Origin: an uncultured Alphaproteobacteria bacterium
GTDB lineage: Bacteria > Pseudomonadota > Alphaproteobacteria > Rs-D84
Assembly (NCBI GenBank): GCA_951801825.1
Contig: CATOOF010000001.1
Location: 380,132-444,131 of the forward strand
Direction: 5' to 3'
Length of the DNA: 64,000 nucleotides
Positions 14,109 through 38,530 of the stretch are shown in pieces; within the stretch, counting starts at the first letter, position 1; each line of letters opens with the position of its first letter. A program made the translations under genes and the position numbers. The notes beneath the pieces are model-generated. The model had not been told where the DNA came from and searched no databases. It was given only the letters and a program-made list of their open reading frames with translations.

Positions 14109-14135
14109 ATCCCGGTCCGCCGGGATTTTTATTTG
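14109..14135 (+). terminator. Intrinsic terminator after plsX (ATCCCGG/CCGGGAT plus T-run). Overlaps the -35 of the leader A promoter.
   Basis: 7-bp GC stem plus TTTTTATTT. Confidence 0.7.
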
Positions 14136-14320
14136 CAATCTGTATCATGTCTGGTATAATTCCCATTGCATCGGGTGATACCCGGTGTGAGGTGTAACAA
14201 CCTCCAATAGTTTTAAAACTCCACAACCGGTTGGAGGGCTGTGATATATCTAAATAAACAGCACTATACTATTGTAGTTGTTAACCTCCAACCGCCCTTC
14301 ATCACGGCGGATTTTTGTTT
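14133..14320 (+). promoter_or_regulatory. Leader family copy A. Promoter TTGCAA-16-TATAAT (14133-14160), ~150-nt structured leader with a CCAACCGGTTGG hairpin, alternative antiterminator (GGTTGGAGG vs CCTCCAACC) and an intrinsic terminator (14291-14320).
   Basis: Near-consensus promoter. CCGCC/GGCGG stem plus T-run immediately upstream of the SD GGAGG of the HTH gene. X1/Y/X2 complementary segments. Homologous to the element at 25176-25365 (reverse strand) and 38318-38504. Confidence 0.6.
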
Positions 14321-14341
14321 TTCAAAAATACGGAGGATAAA

Positions 14342-14560
14342 ATGAAAACAGAACAGGAATTCGCAATTGCCTTGAAAAAAGCGATGCGCTATGCTCGTAA
14401 ACACAAATGCCCCCAGTATATCGCGCGACATATGGGACTGTGCCCCGGGGTATATTTTGCCTATGAATCAGGCGCTATAAAATTATCTGCATACCAGCTG
14501 TATGTGTTTATTCATTTAACCGGCATGGGACCGGATTTTATCACGAGTATTTATAAATAA
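14342..14560 (+). CDS. Small XRE-family helix-turn-helix protein (72 aa)
   Basis: SD GGAGG 5 nt upstream. HTH-like EFAIALKKAMRYARKHKCPQYIARHMGLCPGVYFAYESG. Paralogous to 24931..25155. Confidence 0.65.
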   Translation: MKTEQEFAIALKKAMRYARKHKCPQYIARHMGLCPGVYFAYESGAIKLSAYQLYVFIHLTGMGPDFITSIYK

Positions 14561-14647
14561 AAACAGTCCGGCGGCAATTACTTGCCGCCGGCCGCTCCTC
14601 TCCTTCCGATTACTCGGAAACTGTTTTGCCCAGAACCGCTTTAACCT

Positions 14648-14980
14648 TTATGCGGCCATGGCGACGCCGCGTTCGGATGAACCTTCGACATCGATAATCT
14701 TTTTAGCCTCTGCGAATACCATTTCTTTTACGCGCAGCGCCAATGTTTTTGTGTCCAGTCCTTCGGCGGCAACATCGAAATTATCTGTGCGAATCTGCAA
14801 TGATACGTATGCACCCACCAGTGATGCGCGTGGCAGGTCTTCAATAGAGCGTGGGGCGTTGTTCATGCCAATCTGCAGTTCATCCGACAGCGATATAATC
14901 TGGCGTGCTTCGTTAACCCATACCGTTGTTGTCAGAACCTTGTTTAAGGCAATCATTATTTCTTTTATATTTTTTGCCAT
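14648..14980 (-). CDS. Hypothetical protein (110 aa)
   Basis: Strong SD AAAGGGGGGA upstream. Terminator hairpin CCGGCGGCAA/TTGCCGCCGG plus T-run downstream on the minus strand. The overlapping plus ORF 14658..15008 is rejected as S-rich low complexity. Confidence 0.55.
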   Translation of the reverse strand: MAKNIKEIMIALNKVLTTTVWVNEARQIISLSDELQIGMNNAPRSIEDLPRASLVGAYVSLQIRTDNFDVAAEGLDTKTLALRVKEMVFAEAKKIIDVEGSSERGVAMAA

Positions 14981-15356
14981 GGCGTATCCCCCCTTTCTTG
15001 GATTTTAGGCCGAAAACATAAACTTCTTGTGTATTTACACCAGTATTTACATTTTCTGAATCAAATTGTGTCTCTTTGTTTCGTTTTTTGGCAGAAATCC
15101 GCTTTTATACGGTTTTCTGGGCTTTTTTTATCTTTTTCTCTTGTCTATACACGAATCATAGAACAAAAACGAATCGCAGGTCAAGCGGAAAATATGTTGA
15201 TTAAAATTTTATTTAAAAAAACACTATGTTGTATCAATATGTCATGGTTTCCCATAAAATAATTATAATATGGCATTGACAACCATAAATGGCCGTGCTA
15301 CATTGTCCACGAAGAACGGAGATGCCGGGCAAGTTCGGAAAACATAAGAACATAAA

Positions 15357-15809
15357 ATGTCATTGTTTCTCTCATCTTATGAAAATCGTTTGGATACAAA
15401 GGGGCGAATTTCTGTCCCGGCATCTTTCCGGGCTTCGATTTCATCAGATAAATTTGCCGGTGTTGTGCTGTTTCGCTCTTTTACGCATAATTGCATAGAG
15501 GGGGTCACAATGGCCCGCATGGAACAGCTGGCGGTGGCGGCCGATAAAAAGGGTGTTTTTGATTCCGAACTGGATGATTTGTCTGCGATGCTGTTTGCGG
15601 ATGCGCGGCCATTGGCGTTTGATGTGGCGGGGCGAATTGTGATACCGGCTGATATGCTGGCGCATGCCGGAATATCCGACCGTGCTGTCTTTGTCGGTCG
15701 CGGCAACAGTTTTCAAATCTGGGAACCGGATGCGTTTCATATGGCTCAGCACAAATCGTTACAAAAACTGCGTTCCGCGCGGCCGGATTTAAAAGTATTG
15801 GATAATTAA
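15357..15809 (+). CDS. mraZ: Transcriptional regulator MraZ (orphan; not followed by rsmH or the dcw genes)
   Basis: FLSSYENRLDTKGRISVPASFR is a signature MraZ N-terminus. Two MraZ repeats. Confidence 0.85.
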   Translation: MSLFLSSYENRLDTKGRISVPASFRASISSDKFAGVVLFRSFTHNCIEGVTMARMEQLAVAADKKGVFDSELDDLSAMLFADARPLAFDVAGRIVIPADMLAHAGISDRAVFVGRGNSFQIWEPDAFHMAQHKSLQKLRSARPDLKVLDN

Positions 15810-15835
15810 AAATCCCGATGTTCCCGGGATTTATT

Positions 15836-17824
15836 TTACCACAGTTTTATTCTGTCTTCCGGTTTGATGTACATCGGGCATTCGGGCGTTATTTTAAATG
15901 CATCATACCATGCGCTGATATGGGGCAGTATTCCGTTAACGCGATTTACGCTAAGCGAGTGTTCGTCTGTTTTTGTCAGGCGCTGTGCCTCTTCGGGTCT
16001 GATGTTTTGGCGCCATGCGTCGGCATATGCGATAAAGAAACGCATGTCCGGGGTCAGGCCTGCGGCGTCGTCTGATGGCGTGCCAAATTTTTTATATGCA
16101 TCAAACGCGATTGTAACACCGCCATAGTCGGCCAGATTTTCGCCCAGTGTAAATTCGCCGTTTGCATTTATTCCCGGTGCCACTTTGATATTGTCAAAGA
16201 ATTTACGCAGAACCTCTGCACGCTTATCAAACGCTGTGGCGTCTTCGGCTGTCCACCAGTCGTTTAAATTTCCGTTCTTGTCAAATTTGCGGCCGGAATC
16301 GTCAAATCCGTGTGTCATTTCGTGGCCTATAATCGCACCGATTGCACCATAGTTGAACGCGTCATCCGCCGTCATATCGAAAAACGGGTACTGCAGTATT
16401 CCCGCCGGAAAACAAATTTCATTTGTTGATGGGTCATAGTATGCGTTAATCTCGTGTGCGTTCATGTACCATAGGTTAGGATCATTTTTCTTTTCTATTT
16501 TATCCAGCCAGAACTGGTCTTCAAATTCTGCCACGCGCACCATATTGTCCCACAGTGAAATGTCGGGGGATATTTCCAGTTTGCTGTAATCGCGCCATTT
16601 GTCTGGGTATCCTATTTTTGCACGGAATGTCCCCAGCTTTTCCAGCGCGCTTGTCTTGGTCTGGTCCGACATCCAGTCCAGGTCTTTTATGCGTCCGGCA
16701 TATGCCCGTTGCAGGTTTTGCACCAGTTTTTCCATGCGGGCCTTGGCCTCGGGCGGGAAATATTCTTTTACATATATGCGTCCAATTTCTTCGCCCAGCG
16801 TTCCGTCCAGCAGTGCGATTGCGCGTTTCCATTTTGGTTTGGGTTCCGGCTGGCCCGCGATTGTGCGATTGTGGAAATCAAATGTTATGTCATAAGATTT
16901 GTCGTCTAACAAGGTGTCCGACGCATCAATAATGCGTAATTTCAAATAGTCCTTTATCAGGTTGATGTCTGTATCGTTCATGATTTTTATGGATTCTGCG
17001 ATTGCGCTGGGCTGGGCGATGTTTATTTTTGTTGCCGCCGCTGCCCCGCGTGCCGCCAGATATTTGTCCCAGTCAAAATCCGGATACTTTTCTTTTATTT
17101 CCGCGATGCTCATTTTGTGATAGTTGGCATGCGGGTCGCGCAAAACTTCTTTTGTGTGGAATGCGCGTGCCATGCGCTCTTCCAGGTCGTACAATTTGTC
17201 TGCATCTATCTTTATGCCGAAATTGGCTGACTGGCTGGCTATGAATTGTTTGTATTTTTTGCGTATTTCTTGGGATTTTTCATCGTTGTCGAAATAATAA
17301 TCGCGCGCCAGTCCGATGCCGCCCTGAAAAATGTGATAGATGAAATGCTCGCTGTCTGTGTCGTCCAGTGCGACCGTGTCACTCCAGAACCCGCCGGAAA
17401 ATTTATGCGCGCGTCCCAGATATTCCGGCAAATCAGCCGCGGACTTTATTTGGTCGACCGCGTCCAAATACGATTGAACGGGCGCTGTTTTTTCACTGTT
17501 GCGGCGTTCGTCATCCATTACGATTTTATAAAGCGTTCCGATTTTTCCTGTGTCTGTTTCGGCAATTTTGCGCACCCGTTCCAGATTGGTATTATGAAGA
17601 ACCTCAAACACGCCATATCGCGAATAATCATTGGGTATTGGATTGGCCCGTCGCCAGCCCAATGTCGCGTAATCATAAAAGTTGTCGCCTGGTTTGACGG
17701 TTTGGTCCATGTTTTCTATTTTTATACCCATTGTCATTACTTTTTCCTCCGTATAATTGTGTGCAAAAAGCAGGGCGCCAATCACCCCCAGAATTCCCAA
17801 TATGTTCAGAATTTTGTTTCTCAT
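15836..17824 (-). CDS. M13 family zinc metallopeptidase (PepO/neprilysin-like), secreted
   Basis: HEMTHGFDD (HExxH), GENLADYGG and other M13 motifs. N-terminal signal/anchor. Confidence 0.88.
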   Translation of the reverse strand: MRNKILNILGILGVIGALLFAHNYTEEKVMTMGIKIENMDQTVKPGDNFYDYATLGWRRANPIPNDYSRYGVFEVLHNTNLERVRKIAETDTGKIGTLYKIVMDDERRNSEKTAPVQSYLDAVDQIKSAADLPEYLGRAHKFSGGFWSDTVALDDTDSEHFIYHIFQGGIGLARDYYFDNDEKSQEIRKKYKQFIASQSANFGIKIDADKLYDLEERMARAFHTKEVLRDPHANYHKMSIAEIKEKYPDFDWDKYLAARGAAAATKINIAQPSAIAESIKIMNDTDINLIKDYLKLRIIDASDTLLDDKSYDITFDFHNRTIAGQPEPKPKWKRAIALLDGTLGEEIGRIYVKEYFPPEAKARMEKLVQNLQRAYAGRIKDLDWMSDQTKTSALEKLGTFRAKIGYPDKWRDYSKLEISPDISLWDNMVRVAEFEDQFWLDKIEKKNDPNLWYMNAHEINAYYDPSTNEICFPAGILQYPFFDMTADDAFNYGAIGAIIGHEMTHGFDDSGRKFDKNGNLNDWWTAEDATAFDKRAEVLRKFFDNIKVAPGINANGEFTLGENLADYGGVTIAFDAYKKFGTPSDDAAGLTPDMRFFIAYADAWRQNIRPEEAQRLTKTDEHSLSVNRVNGILPHISAWYDAFKITPECPMYIKPEDRIKLW

Positions 17825-17827
17825 TTT

Positions 17828-18880
17828 TTATTTTATTAATTCTACCAGCATATGTTCTAATGTCAACACTCCATCAGGGGTTGCGCAAAGTCTTTTATCC
17901 TGTTCTTTTATTAAATCAGGATTTTGTGACACCCAGTCCCAGTTAATTATTTTTTCTGTGTCCGGGGTAATTTTAACACCGCGAACAGTTCGCATGCCGG
18001 TAATGATTTTTTCGGTCGCGCGTGCCTCTGGCGACAGTGGCGAAAACCGTGCGCCGGCCCCCATTTGCTCAAACCAGCCGTCTGTTGTATATATCCGCCC
18101 GGCAGCGCCGCGTCCGATGCCGATATAGGGCGCACCATCCCAAATGTTTAAATTGTGCCTGCATTCAAATCCGGGGGCGGCGTAATTTGATATTTCGTAC
18201 CGTGTCAAATTCAGTGTGTCGCCAATCGCCGTGTACATATCGGCCATTTCATTGTTAGATGGCATTTCCAGACCCATTTTTCCAAACGGCGTGTCTGGCT
18301 CAATTGTAAGTTCATACATAGAGCAATGCTGCAGCCCCAGTCTGTTTATGTCGCGGCACATTCCAATAACAGTATCCGCCGTATGTCCCGGCAGGCCGTA
18401 TATAAAATCGGCGCTAACCCGTATGCCGCGTTTTCCTGCCGCGTCCAACAGGCCCAGTGCGTCGTGCACGGTGTGTCGGCGCCCCATAAATTCTAACTCA
18501 GTATCGTTTAAAGATTGGACGCCGACGGACAGCCTGTTGACCCCGCTCTCGATAAATTCTGTCATACGTGCGGCATCCAGTGTTCCGGGATTTGATTCCA
18601 GTGTAACCTCGCAGTCTTTGGCGATACGAAAGCAGTGATTGATTTTATTCATTATCTGGGAAAATGTCGAGGTCGGCATCAGGGATGGTGTTCCGCCCCC
18701 GAAAAATATTGTAGGAATATCCGCCGGGCCCAGGATTGTCCCCCAGTATTCTAGTTCGCGGCAAATTTCATTGGCATATTTATCCCAATCGGGCCGCACG
18801 GCCATTGAATAAAAAGCGCAATACTTGCACTTGGATATGCAAAAAGGGACATGAATATAGATATTATGGCTGGCGGTCAT
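17828..18880 (-). CDS. hemW: Radical SAM heme chaperone HemW (HemN-like)
   Basis: YIHVPFCISKCKYCAFYS CxxxCxxC radical SAM motif and HemN-like body. Confidence 0.85.
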   Translation of the reverse strand: MTASHNIYIHVPFCISKCKYCAFYSMAVRPDWDKYANEICRELEYWGTILGPADIPTIFFGGGTPSLMPTSTFSQIMNKINHCFRIAKDCEVTLESNPGTLDAARMTEFIESGVNRLSVGVQSLNDTELEFMGRRHTVHDALGLLDAAGKRGIRVSADFIYGLPGHTADTVIGMCRDINRLGLQHCSMYELTIEPDTPFGKMGLEMPSNNEMADMYTAIGDTLNLTRYEISNYAAPGFECRHNLNIWDGAPYIGIGRGAAGRIYTTDGWFEQMGAGARFSPLSPEARATEKIITGMRTVRGVKITPDTEKIINWDWVSQNPDLIKEQDKRLCATPDGVLTLEHMLVELIK

Positions 18881-18950
18881 AATGGCATTGTAGCGCGCAA
18901 TGCACTTCTTGCAAGGTCTAAATTATTATGCTATAATACGGCCATAGCGT

Positions 18951-20495
18951 ATGGATAGGATGAAATCAAGATTTGGTGTATTTTTATCAGGAATGTTGTT
19001 GCCTTTTGCGGCCTGGGCCGCGAACGAGGGTGTCCCGTCTTACTATCAAAAATCTTCCGGACCAAACGCCAATCAAATAGGGTATAGCCAGTACAGCAAC
19101 CAGGGTTATTCCAAATATGTTGGCTCGTCGGGCCAAAAACAGGTTGTCGGTACGCGTTCAACGTCTTATCAGGTGCCGCGTGCAAATACCGCCGTGCCTA
19201 CAAATTATGGCGTAATGACGACAAATGGTGTGGCTATGCCGCCCGCGGCCGAGCATCGAACCAATATATATGCGGGCTATTCGCGTCGTTTCGCAGATTT
19301 TGAATTTAAAACAGGCGTTAATTCCATTCTTGAATGGGATGATATGGTCTTTAATGAAATAAACGTCGGGGCCCAGCATAATTTTTCTCTGCGCGATTTT
19401 GACATGTTTGTATACGGCCAGTATGCCTATGGCAGACAAGAGCATGGCGGTTTGTCAATGGACTATGACCTGGAACCGTATGATTCTGCCTATCCGTCAG
19501 AGGGTATTTTTACCATATCCATTGGTAACCAGTCCGGAACGTCAAATCATTTTAAGTTTGGTATTGGTGCACGCCATATATGGGATATCGGGGGCTGGAA
19601 ACTGTCGCCGTCAATCGGATACGAGATATTCAAGCATGACTTGAAAATGTCGGACCATTATTATCCGAACCCGGGCATTTATCTGCCATTGCTGACGACA
19701 AAGGGCGACTATGTATTTGGTGATGCGGCCGGAAATTACTATGCATTCCCGCAAGGGGTTGAGGCGCCGGACGACCTGTATCAGGTGTGTATGTCGCCTG
19801 AGGATATAAAACTGGTCGATACGTCGGTTGTTGCCCCCGGGACGGGTATAATTTTACCAGAAGGCGGCCTGCACATGACGGATTACAATTCGTCCATGGG
19901 TACGACGCCGTGGGGTGTTGGGCCGGGCGACTGTGTTGTTATTGGTGGCGATGGCCCGGTAATAGTAGAGGGCACAACGCATATATATAACACAACATGG
20001 AGTGGTTTTTTCGTCGGTCTTGAAATTGAAAAGCAAATGACGCTGGCGGACAAGTTACGTTTTTATGTTCAGTTTGGTCTGCCCAAATATTCGTCTGAGG
20101 GAACATGGCCCATGCGCACTGATTGGCAGCAGAACCCCAGTTTCTTGGACGAGGGCAGCAAGGGTGCCTATTCGTACGCAGCAGAGATGGAATACAACCT
20201 GCGCCTGTCGGACAGACTGCAGTTGGCGTTAAAGGTTGATACAAACCTGTTCCATGTGGGCAAGATTCCGGGCAAGCTTTATGTTGCAGAATATACGGAC
20301 GTATCTGTTGACGAAAACGGTAATCCAATATTTGTTAAGGAAATTATAACAGACCCGGCTACTGGTTCCCAGACGACTGTTTTGGTACCCCAGCTGGAAA
20401 CGATTCCTGCGCATACCGAACACATCAGCAATTCGCTGAAAGAGGCCACGTGGCAGTCGTTCGGCCTGCATCTGGGCGTTAAATACGCATTTTAG
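18951..20495 (+). CDS. Outer-membrane beta-barrel protein (hypothetical)
   Basis: Signal peptide MKSRFGVFLSGMLLPFAAWA. Alternating amphipathic strands. C-terminal ...LGVKYAF aromatic terminus. Confidence 0.6.
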   Translation: MDRMKSRFGVFLSGMLLPFAAWAANEGVPSYYQKSSGPNANQIGYSQYSNQGYSKYVGSSGQKQVVGTRSTSYQVPRANTAVPTNYGVMTTNGVAMPPAAEHRTNIYAGYSRRFADFEFKTGVNSILEWDDMVFNEINVGAQHNFSLRDFDMFVYGQYAYGRQEHGGLSMDYDLEPYDSAYPSEGIFTISIGNQSGTSNHFKFGIGARHIWDIGGWKLSPSIGYEIFKHDLKMSDHYYPNPGIYLPLLTTKGDYVFGDAAGNYYAFPQGVEAPDDLYQVCMSPEDIKLVDTSVVAPGTGIILPEGGLHMTDYNSSMGTTPWGVGPGDCVVIGGDGPVIVEGTTHIYNTTWSGFFVGLEIEKQMTLADKLRFYVQFGLPKYSSEGTWPMRTDWQQNPSFLDEGSKGAYSYAAEMEYNLRLSDRLQLALKVDTNLFHVGKIPGKLYVAEYTDVSVDENGNPIFVKEIITDPATGSQTTVLVPQLETIPAHTEHISNSLKEATWQSFGLHLGVKYAF

Positions 20496-20521
20496 TTAAC
20501 GTTATTAAAAGGGGATTTGAT

Positions 20522-21580
20522 ATGAAATCCAGGAATATATTGCGCGTGTGCGCCGTTGTTTTGACGTTGTGTTGTGTTATGCCGGCACGTGGTGACCGCG
20601 GTACGTTTGATATGGAGCGTTGGGATGAAATATTGGCCGATGTGCGCAGTCGTGCGGCGGCAAACAATATATCAAATGCCACGATAAAGGCGGCACTTAA
20701 AACCCCGGCTTTTATTCCGTCCATTGTCCACAGCGATAAAAATCAGTCAGAGTTTAAGCTGACCCTGGACCAGTATCTGGCCCGTACTGTAAATGCAAAG
20801 CGTATTGCCAACGGCCGTCGCATGCGCGGGGTGTATCCCACGATGCTGACGCGTGTGGAAAATAAATACGGTGTTCCGCCGCATGTTATTTTGGCGTTTT
20901 GGGGGCTGGAGTCAAATTATGGCGAGTACAAGGCCGCGCACCGTCTGACGGATGCATTTTTAACACTGATGTATGACGGTCGGCGCCAGACTTTTTTTGG
21001 AAATCAGTTGTTGGCGCTGATGAAGATTGCGGATGATAACAATCTGGATATAACTCAAATCAGGGGCAGCTGGGCCGGCGCAATGGGGCACTTTCAGTTT
21101 ATACCGACGACGCTGGCGTCATATGGGGTTGACGGCAACGGCGATGGCAGTATTGATATAATCGGCAGTGTTGGCGACGCAATGTTCAGTGCGGCAAACT
21201 ATCTGAACAAACTGGGGTGGAACCAGAATGAAAGAATTGTGCGTGCGGTTGTGGTTCCGGCTGGTTTTGATACGGATATGCTGCGCGGTGATGTGAAAAA
21301 GAATCTGGCCCAGTGGGCCGAAATGGGGGTCACACTGCCTGATGGCGGGCCACTGCCGGCGGTTGACATGATGGCCGGGTTGGTCGCGGATGTTGCCGCA
21401 ATAGAGGCGGCGCGTGCCGCTGGCAATGCGGCGGCTGATGCTGATATGGATACAGATGTTGCCCCGCAGCCTGTTATAAAGGCATACCTTACTTATCCTA
21501 ATTTCTATCGTATAAAGAAATGGAATAATTCCAACTGGTATGCGATTGCGATTGCGTCACTGGCGGACGAGTTAAAGTAA
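20522..21580 (+). CDS. mltB: Lytic murein transglycosylase (MltB/Slt35 family)
   Basis: FWGLESNYGEY..., GAMGHFQFIPTT motifs typical of MltB-family lytic transglycosylases. Signal peptide. Confidence 0.8.
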   Translation: MKSRNILRVCAVVLTLCCVMPARGDRGTFDMERWDEILADVRSRAAANNISNATIKAALKTPAFIPSIVHSDKNQSEFKLTLDQYLARTVNAKRIANGRRMRGVYPTMLTRVENKYGVPPHVILAFWGLESNYGEYKAAHRLTDAFLTLMYDGRRQTFFGNQLLALMKIADDNNLDITQIRGSWAGAMGHFQFIPTTLASYGVDGNGDGSIDIIGSVGDAMFSAANYLNKLGWNQNERIVRAVVVPAGFDTDMLRGDVKKNLAQWAEMGVTLPDGGPLPAVDMMAGLVADVAAIEAARAAGNAAADADMDTDVAPQPVIKAYLTYPNFYRIKKWNNSNWYAIAIASLADELK

Positions 21581-21669
21581 ATTCAGCATAAATCGTTAAA
21601 AATAATAATAATTGCTAATGGCGGGATTCTTTGATAATCTTCCCAATATAAATATATAAAGGATATATT

Positions 21670-22635
21670 ATGGCAATCAAGGTTCGCGATTATGAAGTTC
21701 GCATGGCCCGCAATCGGGAAGAGCGCAAACAGGTTCGTCAATTGCGATATGATGTTTTTGTAGAGGAAGAGGGCGCCGGTGCAACCGAGGAACAGCGCGC
21801 CCTGCGTGAAGAATATGATGCATACGACCGCCATGCGGATTATATGGTCGTTCTTCATGCTGGAAAAATAGTGGGCACATACCGCATCATCAGCCGCAAT
21901 GCGGCCGAAAAAATGGGTGGCTTTTACACGGAAAACGAATTTGATATATCCAAGATCAAAAAGGCCCGTGGCAATATTGCCGAAATGTCGCGTGCATGCG
22001 TTGCGCGTGAATATCGCGAAAATGCATTGGTAATGCGCATGCTGTGGGCGGGATTGGGCGAATATGTTGTACGGCATAAAATTGCTATTTTGTTTGGCGT
22101 TGCGTCATGGGTTGGAAAAAATCCGGTTGCATCTGCCCAGGCGATATCATATCTGTATTACAACCATTTGTCGCCGACCAATCTGCGGGCAAAGGTTTTG
22201 ACGGATAATTTCGCCGATGGCGTAAACCCAAAAATGTCTCGCATGAACATATTGCCAGAGGTTTTTGTCGACAAAGACATGGCCACGCATGAAATGACCC
22301 CGCTGGTAAAGGGATATCTGCGCCTGGGGGCGTCATTTGGGCGCGGGGTATTTATTGATGCGCCGTTTAATTCCTATGATGTGTTTGTAATGTTACAGAC
22401 CAAGAACATTGCACCGGCGTATCAAAAGCATTTCTTGGGGCGTGAAAACGCACTGGCCGGTTTGGATGCGGATGCATCGAACGGCACAATGCGCACCATC
22501 GGCAAGATTGTTTCTTTCCCGGTTACCGGCCCGTTAAAGGTAATGGGTGCATTTGTTGAATTCTTATTACGCGAGGATGCGGCCGATGCAGAATACCGTG
22601 ATGATTCCAAAGACCCGGCGGAGGACGAAGACTAA
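21670..22635 (+). CDS. olsB: Ornithine-acyl-ACP N-acyltransferase OlsB (GNAT-like, hemolysin-like acyltransferase family)
   Basis: N-terminal YEVRMARNREERKQVRQLRYDVFVEEEG...TYRI motif block. Directly followed by a PlsC-type acyltransferase (olsA arrangement). Confidence 0.7.
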   Translation: MAIKVRDYEVRMARNREERKQVRQLRYDVFVEEEGAGATEEQRALREEYDAYDRHADYMVVLHAGKIVGTYRIISRNAAEKMGGFYTENEFDISKIKKARGNIAEMSRACVAREYRENALVMRMLWAGLGEYVVRHKIAILFGVASWVGKNPVASAQAISYLYYNHLSPTNLRAKVLTDNFADGVNPKMSRMNILPEVFVDKDMATHEMTPLVKGYLRLGASFGRGVFIDAPFNSYDVFVMLQTKNIAPAYQKHFLGRENALAGLDADASNGTMRTIGKIVSFPVTGPLKVMGAFVEFLLREDAADAEYRDDSKDPAEDED

Positions 22636-22637
22636 TT

Positions 22638-23468
22638 ATGGCGCGCGTCCGCAGACAAAATATTTTTAATACGACCCTGGCGGTGATAAAGTTCACAGTA
22701 TTCTGGTTGTTGGTGTTTTTACAGATGCCGGTAATCATACTGTTGCCGCGCGGCCGGGCCAGTGTATGGTACATGCGCGTTTTTATGTGGTTTCTGTTGA
22801 AAACCGCCGGTATACGCGTACGTGTCCATGGGGGGCTGGTTTCACATCGGCCGCTACTGGTTATAACAAATCATATTTCAATATTTGAAATCGCAACGTT
22901 TCCTGTTGCATTCGGGGGCAGTTTTGTCGCCAAGAAAGAGTTGGAATCCTGGCCGGTCGTGGGCTGGGTTGCGAAAAAGTTTGGTGTTATATTTGTTGAC
23001 CGCCGGCCGTCACATGCACGCGATGCCCTGGCGGTGGTTCAAAAGACAGTCCAGACCGTATCCTATCCCATGTTTCTGTTCCCGGAGGGGACAACAACAA
23101 ACGGCGCATATGTAAAGGAATTTAAAAGCACATTGTTTAACTTTGTAGAAAATTCCAATGTTACCGTTCAGCCCATGGCGACCGTTTACCGTCATTTGGA
23201 CGGGGTGCCCATATCTGATGAAGACATGGCGACACATTATGCCTATTTTGACAATTCAAAACAGGATTGCGGCCCGCGTGCGCCGCGTGAACGCAGTGCT
23301 TTTTCTCAGCTGTTTCACGTAATGGTTATTGGTGGGTTTCGCGTTGATATTACCGTTCTGCCGCCGGCCGACCTGGCGGGCATGGACAGAAAACAGATAG
23401 CGGCCGCACTGCAGAAAACAGTGTCTGAAAAATACATGGAATTAAAAGATAAAGAGATAAAAAAATGA
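22638..23468 (+). CDS. olsA: Lyso-ornithine lipid O-acyltransferase OlsA (PlsC family)
   Basis: NHISIFE(x)...FPEGTTTNG acyltransferase motifs. 3 nt after olsB. Confidence 0.7.
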   Translation: MARVRRQNIFNTTLAVIKFTVFWLLVFLQMPVIILLPRGRASVWYMRVFMWFLLKTAGIRVRVHGGLVSHRPLLVITNHISIFEIATFPVAFGGSFVAKKELESWPVVGWVAKKFGVIFVDRRPSHARDALAVVQKTVQTVSYPMFLFPEGTTTNGAYVKEFKSTLFNFVENSNVTVQPMATVYRHLDGVPISDEDMATHYAYFDNSKQDCGPRAPRERSAFSQLFHVMVIGGFRVDITVLPPADLAGMDRKQIAAALQKTVSEKYMELKDKEIKK

Positions 23469-24901
23469 AGACAGCAATAACACCCACGCGTGCTGAAAAT
23501 TTCAGCGAATGGTATCAGAATCTGATAACAGCGGCCGACCTGGCGGAAAATGCGCCGGTTCGCGGCTGTATGACGATAAAGCCGTACGGCTGGGCGATAT
23601 GGGAACTGATGCGTGATGAAATGGACCGTCGTATAAAGGCCCAGGGCGTCCTGAATGCAAACTTCCCTCTGCTGATTCCAATCGATTTCTTTAACCGAGA
23701 GGCGGAACATGTCGCCGGATTTGCGAAAGAGGCGGCGGTTGTCACACATTACCGCTTGAAAATGATTGAGGGTTCCCTGGCGCCCGACCCGGAATCCAAA
23801 CTGACCGAGCCATATATAATCCGCCCGACATCCGAAACAATAATAGGCGAGGCGATGTCTCGCTGGGTTCAGTCATACCGTGACCTGCCGATGAAATTGA
23901 ACCAGTGGGTAAATGTAATGCGCTGGGAAATGCGTCCGCGCATGTTCCTGCGTACATCCGAATTTAACTGGCAAGAAGGCCACAACGTATTCGCCACGCA
24001 CGAAGAGGCGAACGCCGATGCACGTAAAATGCATAAGCTCTATGGCGACTATATGCGCGATGTTTTGGCGATTCCGGCAATCATGGGTGAAAAAACACCA
24101 GAAGAGCGTTTTGCCGGCGCCGACCATACATATACCACCGAACAGATAATGCAGGACGGCAAGGCGCTGCAGGCGGGCACATCCCACGACCTGGGCCAGC
24201 ATTTCTCAAAATCGTTCGGTATAAAATATTTGGGCACCGACGGCCAGTTGCACCATGCATGGACAACATCATGGGGTACGTCAACGCGTATGATGGGCGG
24301 TCTGTTTATGACGCACAGTGACGACGATGGTCTGGTCCTGCCGCCAATGGTCGCCCCGTACCAGGTTGTGATTATACCGTTGGTTCGCGACGGAAATGAT
24401 GACGCGCTAAATGCGTATGCGGAAAAAATCGGTGATGACCTGCGTGCGCATGGCATTCGCGTTCTGGTCGATACATCCGATATGCGCGGGCCGGATAAAA
24501 TGTGGAAATGGATTAAGCGCGGCGTGCCACTGCGTGTGGAAATCGGTGCGCGCGAAATGGCGGCGGACCAGATAACCGTCACACGTCGTGACCTGGGCAA
24601 GGCGTCAAAGCAGACAATGGCGGCGGCCGAATTTGCATCCGTCGCCGCGGAAATGCTGCACGTGATGCATAAAGACATGTATAACGCCGCCGCCGCGCGC
24701 AATGCAACGATGATAAAGAATGTTGAATCGCTGGACGCGCTGGCCGCGGCATTAGGGGCGGGTGAAATCGGGTTCTTCCGCTTAAAGTATGATTTGACAT
24801 TGGCGCCGGAATTCGATGCGATTATGGATACGTACAAGGTATCGCGTCGCTGTCTGGATGATGCGGACCCGACATACGTGTTTGTCGCAAAATCGTATTA
24901 A
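23465..24901 (+). CDS. proS: Prolyl-tRNA synthetase (archaeal/eukaryote-type class II, ~478 aa)
   Basis: RAENFSEWYQNLI N-terminus, class II motifs. Overlaps olsA by 4 nt. Confidence 0.9.
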   Translation: MKTAITPTRAENFSEWYQNLITAADLAENAPVRGCMTIKPYGWAIWELMRDEMDRRIKAQGVLNANFPLLIPIDFFNREAEHVAGFAKEAAVVTHYRLKMIEGSLAPDPESKLTEPYIIRPTSETIIGEAMSRWVQSYRDLPMKLNQWVNVMRWEMRPRMFLRTSEFNWQEGHNVFATHEEANADARKMHKLYGDYMRDVLAIPAIMGEKTPEERFAGADHTYTTEQIMQDGKALQAGTSHDLGQHFSKSFGIKYLGTDGQLHHAWTTSWGTSTRMMGGLFMTHSDDDGLVLPPMVAPYQVVIIPLVRDGNDDALNAYAEKIGDDLRAHGIRVLVDTSDMRGPDKMWKWIKRGVPLRVEIGAREMAADQITVTRRDLGKASKQTMAAAEFASVAAEMLHVMHKDMYNAAAARNATMIKNVESLDALAAALGAGEIGFFRLKYDLTLAPEFDAIMDTYKVSRRCLDDADPTYVFVAKSY

Positions 24902-24904
24902 ACA

Positions 24905-24933
24905 ATCCCCGCCAGCGCGGGGATTTTTTTTTA
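24905..24933. terminator. Bidirectional intrinsic terminator between proS and the convergent HTH gene.
   Basis: ATCCCCGC/GCGGGGAT stem flanked by T/A runs. Confidence 0.7.
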
Positions 24934-25155
24934 TTTCCAATCTTTTAACAGCTCAATATTACACATGTGTATCAGACGATATACCTGGTACGGTGTCGGG
25001 TGAATCTTGCCCTTTTCAATCTCGTAATACACCAACCCATGTATCCCCAGCATGCGTCCCGTGTAATAAGGGCTAAGGTTTGTCTTTTTCCGCATGCGCC
25101 GCATAATATGCCCCAGCGACCTGTAAAACTCTTGCTCTGATTGTAATTTTTTCAT
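24931..25155 (-). CDS. Small XRE-family helix-turn-helix protein (74 aa), paralogue of 14342..14560
   Basis: SD GGAGGATAAAC upstream on the minus strand, nearly identical to copy A. HTH segment LGHIMRRMRKKTNLSPYYTGRMLGIHGLVYYEIEKG. Confidence 0.65.
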   Translation of the reverse strand: MKKLQSEQEFYRSLGHIMRRMRKKTNLSPYYTGRMLGIHGLVYYEIEKGKIHPTPYQVYRLIHMCNIELLKDWK

Positions 25156-25175
25156 GTTTATCCTCCATATTGGTT

Positions 25176-25365
25176 TTATAAAAAACATACCGCCGTGATG
25201 AAGGGCGGTTGGAGGTTAGATACTATTCGTCATAGTCCTGCTTATTTAGGTATATCACAGGCCTCCAACCATGTTGGAGAATAATTTAACGAAGAGGTAT
25301 CTACACCTCACATTGGTAATCATCCAATGCGGTATGAATTATAACATAATAATTGCGCTTTGCAA
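25176..25365 (-). promoter_or_regulatory. Leader family copy B (reverse orientation): promoter TTGCAA-16-TATAAT on the minus strand (25338-25365), structured leader, terminator (25176-25208).
   Basis: Reverse complement aligns along its length with 14161-14320, including GTGAGGTGTA, CTCCAAC-ATG-GTTGGAGG, CCTCCAACCGCCCTTCATCACGGCGG. Confidence 0.6.
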
Positions 25366-25368
25366 ATT

Positions 25369-26751
25369 TTAATATCTGTCGTATATGACGGGTGTTTTAT
25401 TTATCGTATATATACGCCCGTCATTTTTGCGGTTGTAAAATATGTACATAACGTTTGAAATTGTATCCTTTATCCATGGGTTGGCGCTGCCTATGACCTG
25501 GCGCTGGGTGTTATGCGGGAACACTGTGTGAAATGTATTGTCAAACACGCGCGTATATGCGTCGTCAAACGTCGCGCTAAGTACCATGTTCATAATAATT
25601 ATTCCATCTGGCGCGATGCGTGATTTTATTCGCGACATAAATTCCGCCGTGATTAAGTTTTCCGGTATCTGATATGAATTGGAATATACGTCCAATATAA
25701 TCAAATCGTATTCTTGGGTTGTATGTTTCAAAAACTGGCTGGCGTCGCGAACAATAAACTTTTTATTTGGTGTCAAATCGCGTTTTAAAAATTCTTTTTC
25801 CGAAATATCTTTCAGCGTGCTTTCGATATCCACAAACGTATAATCGTTGAAATCGTCGTTCAGTCCGGCTGTAAATCCGCCCGCCCCCAGTACCAGTATT
25901 TTGCGCACCCGGTCCCGCGGCATGTTGTATATAAAGTTTGTATTGATATAGTTTATATATTCGGCCCCCATCTGCGAACTGGGATAATACACCGACATCG
26001 GCAGGCCGTTCATATATAAAACCTTTACCGTTTCGGCATCCATAACAGATATGGTTGAATTTGCGTTATTGACGATTATTCCGAAATATTTTTTCTGTAC
26101 CGCACTGCTGTTGATAATCACGGTGGCCGCCATTATCAATGTGGCGGCAATGGCGCCGCCCAGGCGCATGCGGCATATTATTGCGGCAAAAATCCCCATC
26201 CCCACAACAAGTGTTATCGTATGATTTACGCCGATAAACGGCATAAAGGCCAGTGTTGTTGCAATCGATGCGATTACCGACCCGATTGTATCCCATGCCA
26301 TAATATTTCCGGCATAGTTTGTATTGTATTTATGCAGCATTCGCGACAACAGTGTTGTGTTGTATCCGAACAAAAACGGCCCCGCCGATAAAAACAGGAA
26401 TGAAAATATAAATGTCTGGATAATGCCCGATGTGATGCCGATTTGATACATCCATTCAAAATATTTTGATACCAGCGGAAATGACCCGGCCAGGATTGCA
26501 AACACGGCAATAACAAGAAAACTTTTCCCCAGTCGTCTTCGCGCCCGCGCAGGGGTTATATTGCTGCGCGTGCCCATAAAATACCCCAGTGACATAAACC
26601 CCATAAAGCTGCCCATTATGATACTGGTAATTACGGCGGCGCTGCCTACGAAAAACGACAACTGGCGCATCACGACCAGTTCCAGTGACATGCTGACATA
26701 ACCGTTCAAAAATATTAAGAATACCAGCCACAGGTGCAGTTTTTTTGTCAC
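25369..26751 (-). CDS. Polytopic membrane protein fused to a spermidine/spermine synthase-like (PABS) domain
   Basis: N-terminal ~220 aa of TM helices. C-terminal VLGAGGFTAG...IDIES..ILDVY Rossmann-fold methyltransferase/PABS signature. Confidence 0.65.
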   Translation of the reverse strand: MTKKLHLWLVFLIFLNGYVSMSLELVVMRQLSFFVGSAAVITSIIMGSFMGFMSLGYFMGTRSNITPARARRRLGKSFLVIAVFAILAGSFPLVSKYFEWMYQIGITSGIIQTFIFSFLFLSAGPFLFGYNTTLLSRMLHKYNTNYAGNIMAWDTIGSVIASIATTLAFMPFIGVNHTITLVVGMGIFAAIICRMRLGGAIAATLIMAATVIINSSAVQKKYFGIIVNNANSTISVMDAETVKVLYMNGLPMSVYYPSSQMGAEYINYINTNFIYNMPRDRVRKILVLGAGGFTAGLNDDFNDYTFVDIESTLKDISEKEFLKRDLTPNKKFIVRDASQFLKHTTQEYDLIILDVYSNSYQIPENLITAEFMSRIKSRIAPDGIIIMNMVLSATFDDAYTRVFDNTFHTVFPHNTQRQVIGSANPWIKDTISNVMYIFYNRKNDGRIYTINKTPVIYDRY

Positions 26752-26814
26752 GATGAAATTCCTCCTTTGCGGTCAAAATGGTAAAGGAAAAATTGTTTTC
26801 AGGCAATGTAAATT

Positions 26815-28595: not shown

Positions 28596-29846
28596 ATGAT
28601 TAAATTACCTGAACTTTTGGCGCCGGCCGGAACGCTGGACGCATTTAAAACGGCCATTTTATATGGCGCTGATGCAATATATGCGGGACTGCCCGGTTTT
28701 TCTATGCGCGCCCGTGCAAAAATTACCACCGAAGAGGTAAAGGCCGGAATCGAATTGGCACATGCCGCTGGGAAAAAGGTTTATTTGGCCTTTAACCTGT
28801 TTGCACATGATGCAGAATATGCAAATCTTTCGCGGGTCAGTGAAACAATACGCTATCTGCGGCCTGATGCGCTGATTGTTTCCGACCCCGGTATTGTAAT
28901 GTGGGTGCGTGAAAATCATCCCGATATTCCGATTCATATTTCAACCCAGGCAAATATATGTTCGGCGCGTTCTGTAAAATTTTGGCAGGCGGCCGGTGCC
29001 CGTTTATGTGTTCTTGCGCGTGAGGTATCGCACAGTGAATTCAAATCGATACGCGCGGCATGCCCTGATGTTGGGCTGGAAATATTCGTTCATGGTGCGA
29101 TGTGCATGTCGTATTCCGGGCGGTGCCTGTTGTCTAATTTCGTGACCGGGCGTCCGGCAAATCGTGGGGCGTGCGCCCAGCTGTGTCGTTGGAAATACGA
29201 CGTTATATTGCGCGAGCGCGAATCGGGCCTGGAAATGCCCCTGGAAGAAGATGAGCGCGGCGCATATATAATGAACTCAAAAGATTTGTGTTTGATGCCC
29301 CGCCTGGGCGAGGTTGTCGCCGCCCGGCCGGATTCTCTGAAGATAGAGGGGCGCAACCGCAGCGAGTATTATGTGGGCAGTGTAGTGCATGCATATCGCT
29401 GTGCGCTGGATGCATATGCCGCCGCCCCGGATAAATTTGACCCGGCGCCTTTTATGGCGGCGTTGAATGTTTTAGAAACACGTGGATATACGACGGCTTT
29501 CTTTGATGGGCCCGTTGGTGCCGACGCGCATGATTATAATACCACGCGATCTACGTCAGAATATCATGCCGCCGGGGTTATAACGGCCGTTAATTCTGAT
29601 AAGATTACATTGGAATTGCGAAATGAAATAAAGGCGGGCGATGAAATAACATTTATACTGCCCGGAACAATGGATAATGTATCTGTATTGCTAGAGCGGA
29701 TTATAAACGCGGCCAACGGCGCGGATGTTCCAAAAATGGCCGCGGGCCAGCGTAACAGCATAATTATTCCGCGCCAATGGTTGTGCGGTGCACCTGTGGA
29801 AAATTTCGCGGTAAACGTTCTGGCATATAAGAAAAAGAATAAATAA
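28596..29846 (+). CDS. Peptidase U32 family protein (YhbU/RlhA-like)
   Basis: MIKLPELLAPAGTLDAFKTAILYGADAIYAG N-terminus characteristic of the U32 family. The ORF-track start 28443 overlaps the tRNA and is rejected. Confidence 0.8.
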   Translation: MIKLPELLAPAGTLDAFKTAILYGADAIYAGLPGFSMRARAKITTEEVKAGIELAHAAGKKVYLAFNLFAHDAEYANLSRVSETIRYLRPDALIVSDPGIVMWVRENHPDIPIHISTQANICSARSVKFWQAAGARLCVLAREVSHSEFKSIRAACPDVGLEIFVHGAMCMSYSGRCLLSNFVTGRPANRGACAQLCRWKYDVILRERESGLEMPLEEDERGAYIMNSKDLCLMPRLGEVVAARPDSLKIEGRNRSEYYVGSVVHAYRCALDAYAAAPDKFDPAPFMAALNVLETRGYTTAFFDGPVGADAHDYNTTRSTSEYHAAGVITAVNSDKITLELRNEIKAGDEITFILPGTMDNVSVLLERIINAANGADVPKMAAGQRNSIIIPRQWLCGAPVENFAVNVLAYKKKNK

Positions 29847-29875
29847 ATCCCCGCAAAATGCGGGGGATTTTTTTA
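29847..29875. terminator. Bidirectional terminator between the U32 peptidase gene and cvpA
   Basis: ATCCCCGC/GCGGGGGAT stem plus T-run. Confidence 0.7.
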
Positions 29876-29886
29876 CAGTTGTTTTT

Positions 29887-36177: not shown

Positions 36178-36246
36178 AAAGCTATTTCAGGCGTGCCGAA
36201 CATTGATGTTTCGGCGCGCTTAGTAAATACAACCGGGCGAGAGAGA

Positions 36247-38015: not shown

Positions 38016-38042
38016 GCCCCCGCAACGGCGGGGGATTTTTTT
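38016..38042 (+). terminator. Intrinsic terminator after 36247..38007
   Basis: CCCCCGC/GCGGGGG stem plus T7. Confidence 0.75.
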
Positions 38043-38094
38043 ATAGCATTTAACGCACAAATAGGATATGGTGCCACTTGTAATAGGGAACCTA

Positions 38095-38265
38095 TTATGC
38101 GAGATTAGTACTCTCGCCCAACAACCGCCTGCGCAGGCGTAAAATGCCAATCCCATCCCGGGGGTTGGATGCGGTGAATATATGGAATAAGCCGTAAGCA
38201 TGTTGTTGTGCGAAGTACTAACTTCAGCCCCCGCCCTGTATTACATGGCGGCTTTTATATTTTCG
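38095..38265 (+). promoter_or_regulatory. Degenerate leader-family-like unit (C1) ending in a CCGCC/GGCGG terminator (38231-38265)
   Basis: Contains CCCAACAACC, GGGGGTTGGATG and CCCCCGCCCTGTATTACATGGCGG plus T-run, resembling the X/Y/terminator layout of copies A and B. Confidence 0.3.
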
Positions 38266-38282
38266 TAAAATATTATGGCAAT

Positions 38283-38504
38283 GCCATAATCTCGAATATA
38301 TAATTTGGTGTGGCGCGTAATGGAAAAAACTGTTACCAGCGCGAGGCGTAGAAAACCTCAAGTACACGATCGCCTGTTGTGTTACGGGCGTTAAACTTCC
38401 AACCCGTGGTTGGAGGCGGGTCTTATATATTGAAAGGACCCGGGCAATTCATAGTGTATTGTTTTTCTACCCTCCAACCACCAATGTTTTCAGGTGGTTT
38501 TTTG
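38283..38504 (+). promoter_or_regulatory. Leader family copy C2: 17-bp palindrome TTATGGCA-A-TGCCATAA overlapping the -35, -10 TATAAT (38309-38314), structured leader with TCCAACC-CGT-GGTTGGAGG hairpin, CCTCCAACC, terminator AACCACC/GGTGGTT plus T-run (38476-38504)
   Basis: Homology to copy A in the segments AAACTTCCAACCCGTGGTTGGAGGCGGGTCTTATATATTG and CCTCCAACC-terminator. Followed by SD GGGGGAGAG and an ATG. Confidence 0.5.
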
Positions 38505-38530
38505 TTAAAGCCTAACAGGGGGAGAGACCG

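Follow-up and report, generated by a model that had tools for sequence, protein, structure and literature searches.

The 64,000-nt stretch analysed here (the window) belongs to contig CATOOF010000001.1 of an uncultured Alphaproteobacteria bacterium and carries two inverted copies, A and B, of a compact module in which a promoter, a structured leader RNA and an intrinsic terminator precede a short open reading frame (ORF). Copy A occupies positions 14133-14341 of the plus strand and is followed by an ORF at 14342-14560; copy B occupies 25365-25156 of the minus strand, with its ORF at 25155-24931. The 10.4-kb segment between them holds a 110-aa ORF, mraZ, an M13 peptidase, a radical-SAM enzyme, a Pom-like outer-membrane protein and proS. 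An initial annotation had described both modules, with their common promoter, structured leader, terminator and Shine-Dalgarno (SD) sequence, as well as the mraZ-proS content of the flanked segment, and we find all of these at the positions it gave; it missed a further tandem pair, copies C and D, in the same window. The four copies belong to a strongly supported, multi-copy family of structured RNAs in an uncultured lineage of gut alphaproteobacteria, which is most likely a new terminator-bearing variant of the kind represented by phage P1 c4 and the small RNA (sRNA) sRNA-Xcc1.

Copy A begins with a promoter that can be read directly in the sequence (TTGCAA 14133-14138, a 16-nt spacer, TATAAT 14155-14160). 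It is followed by a 5' hairpin, P1 (GCAUCGGG-UGA-UACCCGGUGU, 14168-14188), supported by the minimum free energy fold and by covariation in the family, and by hairpin P2 with a GAGG/CCUC stem (14189-14204), whose loop UGUAACAA holds the strand a1 (v1, ~14194-14200). Strand b1 (v2, CAAUAGU, 14205-14211) comes immediately after P2, and its partner b' (ACUAUUG, 14268-14274) lies in the P6 hairpin region (14262-14277), which was assigned from a partner-swap test and the fold. The next element, X0 (CUCCACAACC, 14219-14228), is a decoy complementary to strand c, as indicated by X0:c pairing in relatives. Strand c (GGUUGGAGG, 14229-14237) forms the 5' side of a closing stem and has either X0 or strand f as its partner. 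Hairpin P5 (14239-14261) has a covarying stem and a conserved AU-rich internal loop. A short linker, a' (v1', UUGUU, 14278-14282), placed by covariation of the a1:a' pseudoknot (PK1), stands directly 5' of f (AACCUCCAACC, 14283-14293), the 3' strand of the closing stem. With its last 3 nt, f also contributes the start of the covarying stem of the intrinsic terminator (ACCGCC...GGCGGA followed by a U-run, 14291-14322), after which come an SD sequence (GGAGGA, 14332-14337) and the 72-aa ORF. Copy A also contains a 35-codon ORF (GTG at 14241, to 14345), which starts just after the SD-like GGAGG of strand c and whose TGA overlaps the ATG of the 72-aa gene (ATGA). It was considered as a leader peptide and rejected: it occurs in copy A only, and in copy B this frame meets a stop after 11 codons.

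Copy B repeats this arrangement on the minus strand. Its promoter (TTGCAA 25365-25360, a 16-nt spacer, TATAAT 25343-25338) is again read in the sequence, and the RNA body (25330-25207) comprises P1 (25330-25310), P2 (25309-25294, a1 AGAUA), b1 (25293-25288), X0 (25279-25273), c (25270-25262) and then P5, with b' at 25231-25226, a' at 25222-25218 and f at 25217-25207. The terminator (ACCGCC...GGCGGU followed by a U-run) spans 25209-25178, and an SD sequence (GGAGGA, 25166-25161) precedes a 74-aa ORF with a predicted XRE fold (25155-24931). Aligned pairwise, A and B are 77% identical across ~500 columns. In both, the promoter is followed by a hairpin at the 5' end and the GTGAGGTGTA block; next come two hairpins, CTCCA(A)C...GGTTGGAGG and one rich in AU, then AACCTCCAACC, a CCGCC...GGCGG stem with a T-run, and GGAGGATAAA(C)ATG. 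They are nearly identical from GTGAGGTGTA via GGTTGGAGG and CCTCCAACCGCCCTTCATCACGGCGG up to GGAGGATAAA(C)ATG. They share an exact, inverted run of ~29 nt; a 26-mer common to both occurs exactly twice in the window against 0 expected from 100 shuffles, and a repeat finder lists the copies as two arms, I1 and I2. The two encoded proteins (72 and 74 aa) are 35% identical and both carry the E-x-EF and YQ-x-Y motifs, in keeping with the paralogy claimed for them in the initial annotation.

To define the family, a gapped pattern on two invariant blocks was scanned against a one-genome-per-species collection. At least 119 stretches were found, nearly all in gut or rumen metagenome-assembled genomes (MAGs) labelled Candidatus Enterousia, Alphaproteobacteria or Rickettsiales. 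A covariance model, R1, built on the segment from X0 to the terminator, identified 109 distinct elements over 100 related loci, 13 of which hold two or three. More than 110 further copies exist outside the window, several per genome, in Candidatus Enterousia-like gut MAGs. In six loci (L014, L015, L017, L018, L009 and L012) the metagenome contig has an end within the element or at its ORF, as would be expected if assemblers broke at multi-copy repeats, so copy numbers in MAGs are probably underestimated. Homologues of proteins A and B form nine clusters only, all from the same lineage, and every one of their loci has the same leader, with compensatory differences evident. Among 2.9 million viral contigs there were 6 pattern matches, of which 4 are real copies, indicating that the family is chromosomal. 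One of the related loci also contains the alphaproteobacterial two-piece transfer-messenger RNA.

The shared anatomy is constant across the family. A promoter with the consensus TTGnnn-N16-18-TAnnnT stands at the equivalent position in 85 of 110 relatives. Downstream of it are the 5' hairpin P1, hairpin P2 (GRGG/CCYC) with the loop yGU-NNNNN-A that contains a1, strand b1 immediately 3' of P2, and an optional hairpin, P3, which is found in copies C and D and not in A and B. X0 consists of an A-rich stretch and then CUCCAAYC, and is separated from c (consensus GGUUGGAGG) by a variable loop of 3-12 nt. P5 has the conserved internal loop GAAUA...GAAUAAG, the P6 hairpin region contains b', and the linker a' is 5-7 nt long. 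The consensus of f is AACCUCCAACC; the terminator stem starts with its last 3 nt, and a U-run follows in 106 of 110 relatives. The SD sequence and ORF lie 3' of the terminator. In 85% of 96 cases the start codon falls 10-39 nt past the end of the R1 match, which leaves no room for a second promoter.

An unfiltered search of the window with R1 recovered A and B together with copies C and D, neither of which had been in its seed. Copy D matched at 38382-38509 with 62.7 bits (E=6.6e-12) and copy C at 38129-38263 with 33.9 bits (E=1.9e-5); copy B scored 84.0 bits, having itself belonged to the seed. Copy C (38067-38262, plus strand) is diverged, has no ORF and has a weak promoter (TATGGT 38067-38072). 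Its 5' domain comprises P2 (38099-38117, a1 UUAGUAC), b1 (38119-38125) and P3 (38126-38139). Its strands X0 (CCAAUCCC, 38147-38154), c (GGGGGUUGGA, 38160-38169) and f (UUCAGCCCCC, 38223-38232) are each off consensus yet still complementary, and it retains b' (38202-38208), a' (38215-38221) and a terminator reaching to ~38256. Copy D (38276-38512, plus strand) follows with a promoter TGGCAA-N17-TATAAT (38276-38304), P2 (38343-38359, a1 AGAAAA), b1 (38360-38367), P3 (38371-38390), X0 (38396-38404), c (38408-38416), b' (38454-38458), a' (38463-38468), f (ACCCUCCAACC, 38469-38479) and a terminator with U-run to 38503. An SD sequence (GGGGGAG) and a 92-aa ORF without Pfam match (38531-38809) complete it (38518-38809). 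A gene for a 604-aa Gly/Ala-rich predicted secreted protein (36193-38007, plus strand) ends just 5' of copy C. The a1 strand of copy A (UAACAAC, 14194-14200; partner GUUGUUA 14276-14283) is nearly identical to b1 of copy C (CAACAAC, 38119-38125; partner GUUGUUG 38202-38208), so that A and C could cross-pair, unlike the other combinations in the window.

The structure was examined by counting pairs in 92 non-redundant sequences over P1, P2, X0:c, P5, the terminator and the pseudoknot a1:a'. Standard pairs filled 94.9% of the cells, compared with 82.7% in shuffles (0 of 500 reached the observed value) and 30-52% in slid controls, and 17 of the 30 pairs had changed on both sides (382 cells). The view in the initial annotation that conservation of the non-coding part reflects a functional RNA structure is borne out by these counts. 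P1 covaries (columns 15-17/32-34 of alignment A2, all with double changes), as do P2 (pair 37:52 is GC in 47, AU in 24 and GU in 13), the P5 stem (A2 columns 156-159/194-196) and the terminator stem at its fourth pair (240:264; GC 43, AU 39). The preceding terminator pairs, A237-U267, C238-G266 and C239-G265, are built from the nucleotides A, C and C of f. The fold energy lies below that of shuffled sequence (z = -4.2 and -5.3).

Two long-range pairings connect the 5' domain with the core. The a1:a' pseudoknot, between the P2 loop and the linker before f, has compensatory changes in 5 of 6 pairs; one of these pairs is AU in 34, UA in 18, GC in 16 and CG in 15 sequences. A first partner-swap test of a1:a' was uninformative owing to low-complexity sequences, and the column-based count settled it. 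The b1:b' pairing, between the strand after P2 and the loop of hairpin 2, could not be aligned by MAFFT and was therefore tested by partner swap. The longest duplex of b1 with its own P6 region averaged 7.67 bp against 4.79 bp with the P6 of a swapped member; duplexes of at least 6 bp were formed by 90% of own pairs and by 27% of swapped pairs, and the paired sequences took 88 different forms among the 92 members. Since the a1:a' and b1:b' sequences differ in every copy, each RNA appears to be addressed to itself. RNAalifold on the MAFFT alignment recovered c:f as the only helix; this weak result is attributed to misalignment of the variable helices, and the column scan, partner-swap tests and pair counts replaced it.

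Strand c has two conserved partners. The X0:c helix is ~95% paired in the 92 sequences. Over the 109 distinct elements c:f shows 18 double-change cells in 6 of its 9 pairs and 5 unpaired cells, and X0:c shows 11 double-change cells; nearly every substitution in X0 is compatible with wobble pairing (86 one-sided changes). Most members have invariant c, X0 and f, as expected if c must satisfy two partners. Both helices are kept in diverged copies, namely L046 (c GGUCGGGAU, X0 GUCCCGACC, f CUCCCGACC), L065 (c GGUCGGGGU, X0 UUCCCGACU, f GCCCCGACC), the second copy in L013 (c GGUCGGGGGG, X0 CUCCCGAUU, f CUCCCCGACC) and window copy C, with its c GGGGGUUGGA facing X0 CCAAUCCC or f UUCAGCCCCC. These compensatory changes place both X0:c and c:f under selection, as the initial annotation had anticipated in proposing alternative pairings among elements it called Y, X1 and X2 (here c, X0 and f). 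The local hairpin X0:c and the long-range helix c:f cannot coexist, and the terminator competes with c:f for 3 nt. For all four window copies the unconstrained ViennaRNA fold is what we call state I, a stem made of a1:a' and b1:b' around X0:c and P5, with the terminator after it. If c:f is imposed (state II), the penalty is +1.3 (A), +6.6 (B), +9.8 (D) and +9.3 (C) kcal/mol, with pseudoknots not counted.

The genes behind the elements are of several kinds. Among the listed 119 elements, ~51 precede proteins with a signal peptide, rich in cysteine (~4.3%) and with essentially no Pfam family, ~30 precede small XRE-like helix-turn-helix (HTH) proteins of several subfamilies, and 17 have no ORF within 140 nt. 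Ten of the secreted proteins searched against Pfam gave one weak OMP_b-brl match and nothing else. Proteins A and B are predicted to adopt an XRE-HTH fold, as the initial annotation had proposed. Pfam falls just short of its cut-off for HTH_3/HTH_31 (protein B scores 22.0 on HTH_3 against 23, and protein A has no match); two downstream HTH proteins of relatives pass, L097 with 44.2 and L021 with 29.1. The AlphaFold model of protein B is a five-helix bundle with a predicted local distance difference test score of 82, and all 50 PDB matches listed by Foldseek for the window protein are HTH DNA-binding proteins, nearly all of XRE type (TM-score 0.62-0.76), among them C.BclI, HipB and P22 c2. The idea that the HTH gene is the partner of the RNA within the module did not survive the wider comparison, in which such genes are frequent without being obligatory, and binding of the HTH protein to its own leader is for this reason unlikely as a general mechanism. 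As for an effector of the switch, no conserved leader ORF was found in the family and the gene context points to no metabolite.

The order of parts matches that of the immI region of phage P1, the c4 locus. In the P1 record (L245) the -10 element of the c4 promoter is at 2219-2224, a1 (TTGACAG) at 2256-2262, b1 (GTTAGTGC) at 2270-2277, the C4 RNA at 2344-2420, a second a copy, a2 (TTGACAG), at 2424-2430, a second b copy, b2 (GTTAGTGA), at 2453-2460, and the start of icd at 2471. P1 immI and the window family alike have a promoter, a1 (7 nt in P1), b1 (~8 nt in P1), a hairpin and the core RNA, in this order. The fold of the P1 C4 RNA has two hairpins inside a long closing stem, hairpin 1 and hairpin 2, the second of which has b' (UCACUAAC) in the loop. 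The linker a' (CUGUCAA), the 3' strand and ACC come after them. The window family likewise has b' in the loop of hairpin 2 and a' as a linker directly 5' of the 3' strand of the closing stem; in both, a1 is complementary to a' and b1 to b', and the RNA lies upstream of, and is co-transcribed with, the genes it precedes. The ACC/RCC that ends c4 has a counterpart in RCY after f in 90 of 114 elements. The c4 RNA is matured at its 5' end by RNase P. Citron and Schuster are said to have found in 1990 that differences in a and b between P1 and P7 give heteroimmunity, and own a and b sequences in every copy of the window family resemble this specificity.

The window family differs from c4 in lacking a2/b2 at the downstream ribosome-binding site (RBS), in having an intrinsic terminator directly after the closing stem, in its conserved 8-nt X0 decoy for the 5' strand of the closing stem (a search of P1 for a similar decoy was marginal only, P=0.07), and in being chromosomal and multi-copy, in front of XRE-type or secreted proteins rather than icd/ant. 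Its modules lie among housekeeping genes with stable synteny, and not in a phage immunity context with a downstream antirepressor. The Rfam models C4 (RF01695) and c4-a1b1 (RF03163) have gathering scores of 45 and 46.7 bits; P1 itself scores 68.8 and 51 bits, and copy A gives a chance-level c4-a1b1 match of 11.8 bits on the wrong strand. That the window family works like c4 is nevertheless well supported by analogy of layout and pairing. The model of isrK, an RNA of Salmonella Gifsy-1 (RF01394), gave a sub-threshold match on P1 (L245, 2231-2312; 35.1 bits, E=2.9e-4) over the segment with a1, b1 and a U-run hairpin, and no match in the window. IsrK-type sRNAs may thus correspond to the 5' domain of c4-type modules. 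Hershko-Shalev and colleagues reportedly described IsrK in 2016 as a short terminated leader RNA acting on the longer read-through mRNA of the same locus; for the window family, a comparable action in trans of a terminated RNA on read-through from its own locus is hypothetical.

A second relative is sRNA-Xcc1 (Rfam RF02221; gathering score 53 bits, 87-position model), which has been described as a trans-acting sRNA of Xanthomonas carried on integrons, transposons and plasmids. It was seen as a discrete 88-nt RNA with ends mapped by rapid amplification of cDNA ends and treated as trans-acting (PMC2996969). This length is close to that of the Rfam model, whose first position corresponds to c. 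In Xanthomonas integron cassettes it precedes symE (10.1101/2025.06.18.660453), in APSE phages it precedes an ORF6N protein (10.1101/2020.03.17.996009), and in Xylella it is found in tandem arrays, with five copies ~380 bp apart, and adjoining isrK and C4 (PMC12189769). The core of copy A from c to f aligns to the full model (1-87) with 30.7 bits, below the gathering score, and six related copies reach 30.5-38.5 bits. In the Rfam alignment c:f is the outer stem; in both families a 9-bp closing stem surrounds two hairpins and a short linker. The initial annotation did not recognise a described RNA family; this remains correct as far as Rfam thresholds go, whereas the architecture is that of sRNA-Xcc1 and phage P1 c4.

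Three GC-rich candidates from the viral contigs were confirmed as bona fide sRNA-Xcc1 (59-84 bits). Upstream of the Rfam model, such loci have the same 5' domain (P2 with loop a1, b1 and P3), for example L210, L212 and L213. A 7-nt hairpin loop can pair with the linker 5' of f (CUCAAAA/UUUUGAG; CUAGCAA/UUGCUAG), and the strand after the hairpin pairs with the loop of hairpin 2 (GAACAG/CUGUUC; CACAAAG/CUUUGUG; GUACAG/CUGUAC). A scan of 91 viral loci found at least 9 elements with both pairings and seven different loop sequences. A second a1 copy occurs downstream of the core in 10 of 11 elements and a second b1 in 7 of 9, with the b1 copy located at the next gene's RBS or overlapping it (chance ~0.01-0.04 per element). 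Second address copies were seen just 5' of the next start codon in viral loci L147, L161, L204 (3534-3700), L206, L209, L210 and L213. Their position suggests, from sequence, that sRNA-Xcc1 represses the gene behind it. The window family and sRNA-Xcc1 are alike in the sequence of the P5 internal loop (seen at L210), in being multi-copy and forming tandem arrays, and in lying upstream of genes for small DNA-binding proteins. Bona fide sRNA-Xcc1 differs in being GC-rich, in having a2/b2 at the next RBS and a U-run after P3, and in having no terminator after f; X0 is absent from most of its loci. Read most simply, the window type would have exchanged repression of translation via a2/b2 for terminator control, through the X0 decoy and the overlapping terminator. 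The literature searched contained no description of the window motif, no link between sRNA-Xcc1 and c4, and no mention of the downstream address copies of sRNA-Xcc1.

On balance we think it probable that each copy is a c4-like RNA module, at once an RNA gene and a terminator-based leader, co-opted in a Candidatus Enterousia-like chromosome. A sigma-70 promoter would drive an RNA of ~150-190 nt composed of P1, P2 with a1 in its loop, b1, the optional P3, X0, a three-way-junction core and the terminator, with the SD sequence and ORF 10-40 nt further on. The core would consist of the closing stem c:f, P5, and P6 with b' in its loop, with the linker a' just 5' of f. In state I, formation of X0:c, b1:b', a1:a' and the terminator would end transcription and release a stable small RNA. 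In state II, c:f would form, giving the tRNA-like fold of c4 and sRNA-Xcc1 followed by RCY; the terminator would lose 3 bp, and RNA polymerase would read into the HTH or secreted-protein gene. The terminator between RNA and ORF does share nucleotides with an alternative helix, as in an attenuator. We infer that the choice between the states is regulated; the core may also be processed at its 5' end by RNase P, as c4 is, and may then act in trans, for example on its own a1/b1. ON-type riboswitches and attenuators such as the pbuE adenine riboswitch and 1-2-3-4 leaders use similar logic, and the window family is like them in its exclusive conserved helices, in the sharing of the 3' strand of the closing helix with the terminator and in the competing upstream strand. 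It is unlike them in that no ligand or leader peptide is identifiable and the variable pairings behave as antisense addresses.

Several results weigh against this reading. At gathering thresholds Rfam reports only tRNAs in the window. The C4 model has no match on copy A at E<=10, nor on B, C or D at E<=1; sRNA-Xcc1 gives no match on B, C or D at E<=1, and the C4 and sRNA-Xcc1 models do not cross-match each other at E<=2. With default filters R1 has no match on bona fide sRNA-Xcc1 loci; with filters off its best matches are at the right sites, with only 7.6-11.8 bits. Given these low scores, common ancestry is argued from layout and not shown by score, and homology of the window family to c4 and sRNA-Xcc1 is likely, not proven. 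The window family has no a2/b2: in the 80-95 nt after the terminator, own partners do no better than swapped controls. Because c, X0 and f are nearly invariant, their covariation rests on ~12 diverged copies. State I is predicted to be the more stable in all four copies, formation of state II during transcription is hypothetical, and the terminator may simply be leaky, setting a fixed RNA:mRNA ratio. Finally, the 17 of the 119 listed elements that have no ORF behind them, copy C included, would suit a free-standing sRNA equally well.

Recombination at the DNA level has left some traces around the modules. Because A and B are inverted and share their exact run, a RecA-mediated inversion is conceivable. 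The inversion of the mraZ-proS block foreseen in the initial annotation is geometrically possible, but no inversion polymorphism was seen in 44 contigs: all 22 with protein A and all 22 with protein B have the arrangement of the window. Locus L019 of a related species (GCA_949096865.1) contains at 1271-1819 a chimera: its flank and promoter match the B locus at 95% identity, and its body and ORF match A at 91% and 80% (compared with window 25149-26754 and 14152-14512); the next genes, rpmA and rplU, have no counterpart in the window. The chimera, which sits where synteny breaks, is evidence that copies have recombined or undergone gene conversion. Palindromic bidirectional terminators of the form AAAAAATCCCC(C)-loop-GGGGGATTTTTTT stand at the ends of many genes, among them the ORFs of B and D (window 24899-24937, 29841-29879, 38017-38046, 38808-38846 and 55065-55103; L007 and L008, 4240-4270). 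L007 and L008, two assemblies of a relative, are identical up to such a terminator, whose loop is GTTC in one and AAAC in the other, and differ in everything downstream, so that here the palindromic terminator downstream of the ORF, and not the leader, marks the rearrangement breakpoint. A miniature inverted-repeat transposable element or insertion sequence fragment was considered and rejected: there are no terminal inverted repeats, target-site duplication or transposase, and the position is the same in the 44 contigs. Adjoining copy A in all relatives is the 110-aa ORF (14648-14980, minus strand), which has no Pfam family. The mraZ gene (15357-15809), usually expected before the mraW-ftsL cell-division cluster, stands alone in the window and is followed by the convergent M13-peptidase gene (15836-17824, minus strand); in some relatives mraZ is called at only 98-99 aa, with the start further in.

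Other explanations were weighed against the c4-like module. The elements could be free-standing antisense or 'sibling' sRNA genes acting in trans, with the terminator ending the gene, read-through incidental and the targets elsewhere, for example SD regions reached via CCUCC or a2/b2-like sites. This is unlikely, yet it has more to recommend it than the remaining alternatives: elements without an ORF exist (copy C and 17 of the 119 listed overall), tandem arrays occur here and in Xylella (five copies ~380 bp apart, PMC12189769), sRNA-Xcc1 was detected as a separate 88-nt RNA whose ends were mapped (PMC2996969), and a and b sequences differ per copy as specificity determinants should. The fixed spacing stands in its way, as 85% of downstream ORFs start 10-39 nt past the element and so rely on its promoter. 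The partners of a' and b' moreover lie within the same transcript, with no second copy downstream, and in diverged copies the CCUCC motifs covary with c, which identifies internal pairing and not an external target as the constraint. We consider it improbable that the module is an ON riboswitch for a metabolite, second messenger or protein, in which the double-pseudoknotted three-way junction would be the aptamer and the ligand would stabilise c:f. The genes, small XRE regulators and Cys-rich secreted proteins here and phage or cassette genes in the relatives, indicate no metabolite, the two hypervariable pairings resemble antisense addresses rather than an aptamer core, and c4, which has the same layout, is known as an RNA-RNA regulator. 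These points oppose an expression-platform logic with shared 3' strand and competing upstream strand, a P5 internal loop conserved in common with sRNA-Xcc1, and a fold more stable than shuffled sequence (z = -4.2 and -5.3), all of which a riboswitch would explain.

The order of RNA, terminator and small protein also resembles that of ToxIN-type loci, and the RNA could be one half of a toxin-antitoxin or immunity pair, type-III-like or immI-like, with the small downstream protein as partner. Relatives upstream of symE (10.1101/2025.06.18.660453) and of ORF6N/KilA-N-like genes, and those adjoining C4 and isrK in Xylella (PMC12189769), would fit such a pair. It is nevertheless quite improbable for the window modules, which sit in stable housekeeping neighbourhoods; about half of the elements precede secreted proteins, only 4 real copies were found among the 2.9 million viral contigs, and the XRE-HTH fold of the proteins is not that of a known toxin. 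Least probable of all, and very doubtful, is a role of the DNA itself, with the inverted A and B serving as recombination substrates or being remnants of a mobile element that shuffles the 10.4-kb block. The inverted ~29-nt exact run, the chimera in L019, which joins a B-locus flank to an A-type body and ORF, and the assemblies that break within the element speak for it. The uniform arrangement in 22 of 22 A contigs and 22 of 22 B contigs, the lack of terminal inverted repeats, target duplications and transposase, the RNA type of the covariation and the L007/L008 breakpoint, which spares the leader and falls in the loop of the bidirectional terminator downstream, speak against it.

The family adds an unannotated RNA of more than 110 copies to the barely studied gut Alphaproteobacteria, where it heads genes for XRE regulators and lineage-specific secreted proteins. 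Phage P1 c4, sRNA-Xcc1 and the window family, kept apart in databases, have one common architecture, and the Rfam model of sRNA-Xcc1 covers just the 3' half of a larger unit with two address pairings. For sRNA-Xcc1, which has been described without known targets, this offers a possible mechanism, c4-like occlusion of the RBS of the next gene via a2/b2, and the window variant would illustrate the conversion of a module of this kind from translational repression to terminator control. A more speculative extension, which we regard as unlikely on present evidence, is that the loci are orthogonal RNA-only feedback switches, in which the core of each locus, as the terminated RNA or after processing by RNase P, would act in trans, via its private a' and b', on the nascent a1 and b1 of the same locus and keep the terminator-competent junction from closing, so that f displaces X0 from c and transcription continues into the XRE-regulator or surface-protein gene. 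If this were true, sRNA-Xcc1, the 'virulence sRNA', would be an immunity RNA of c4 type and would repress the following gene via a2/b2, and a gut alphaproteobacterium with a reduced genome would possess dozens of switches, each independently addressed by RNA, that originated in a phage immunity device.

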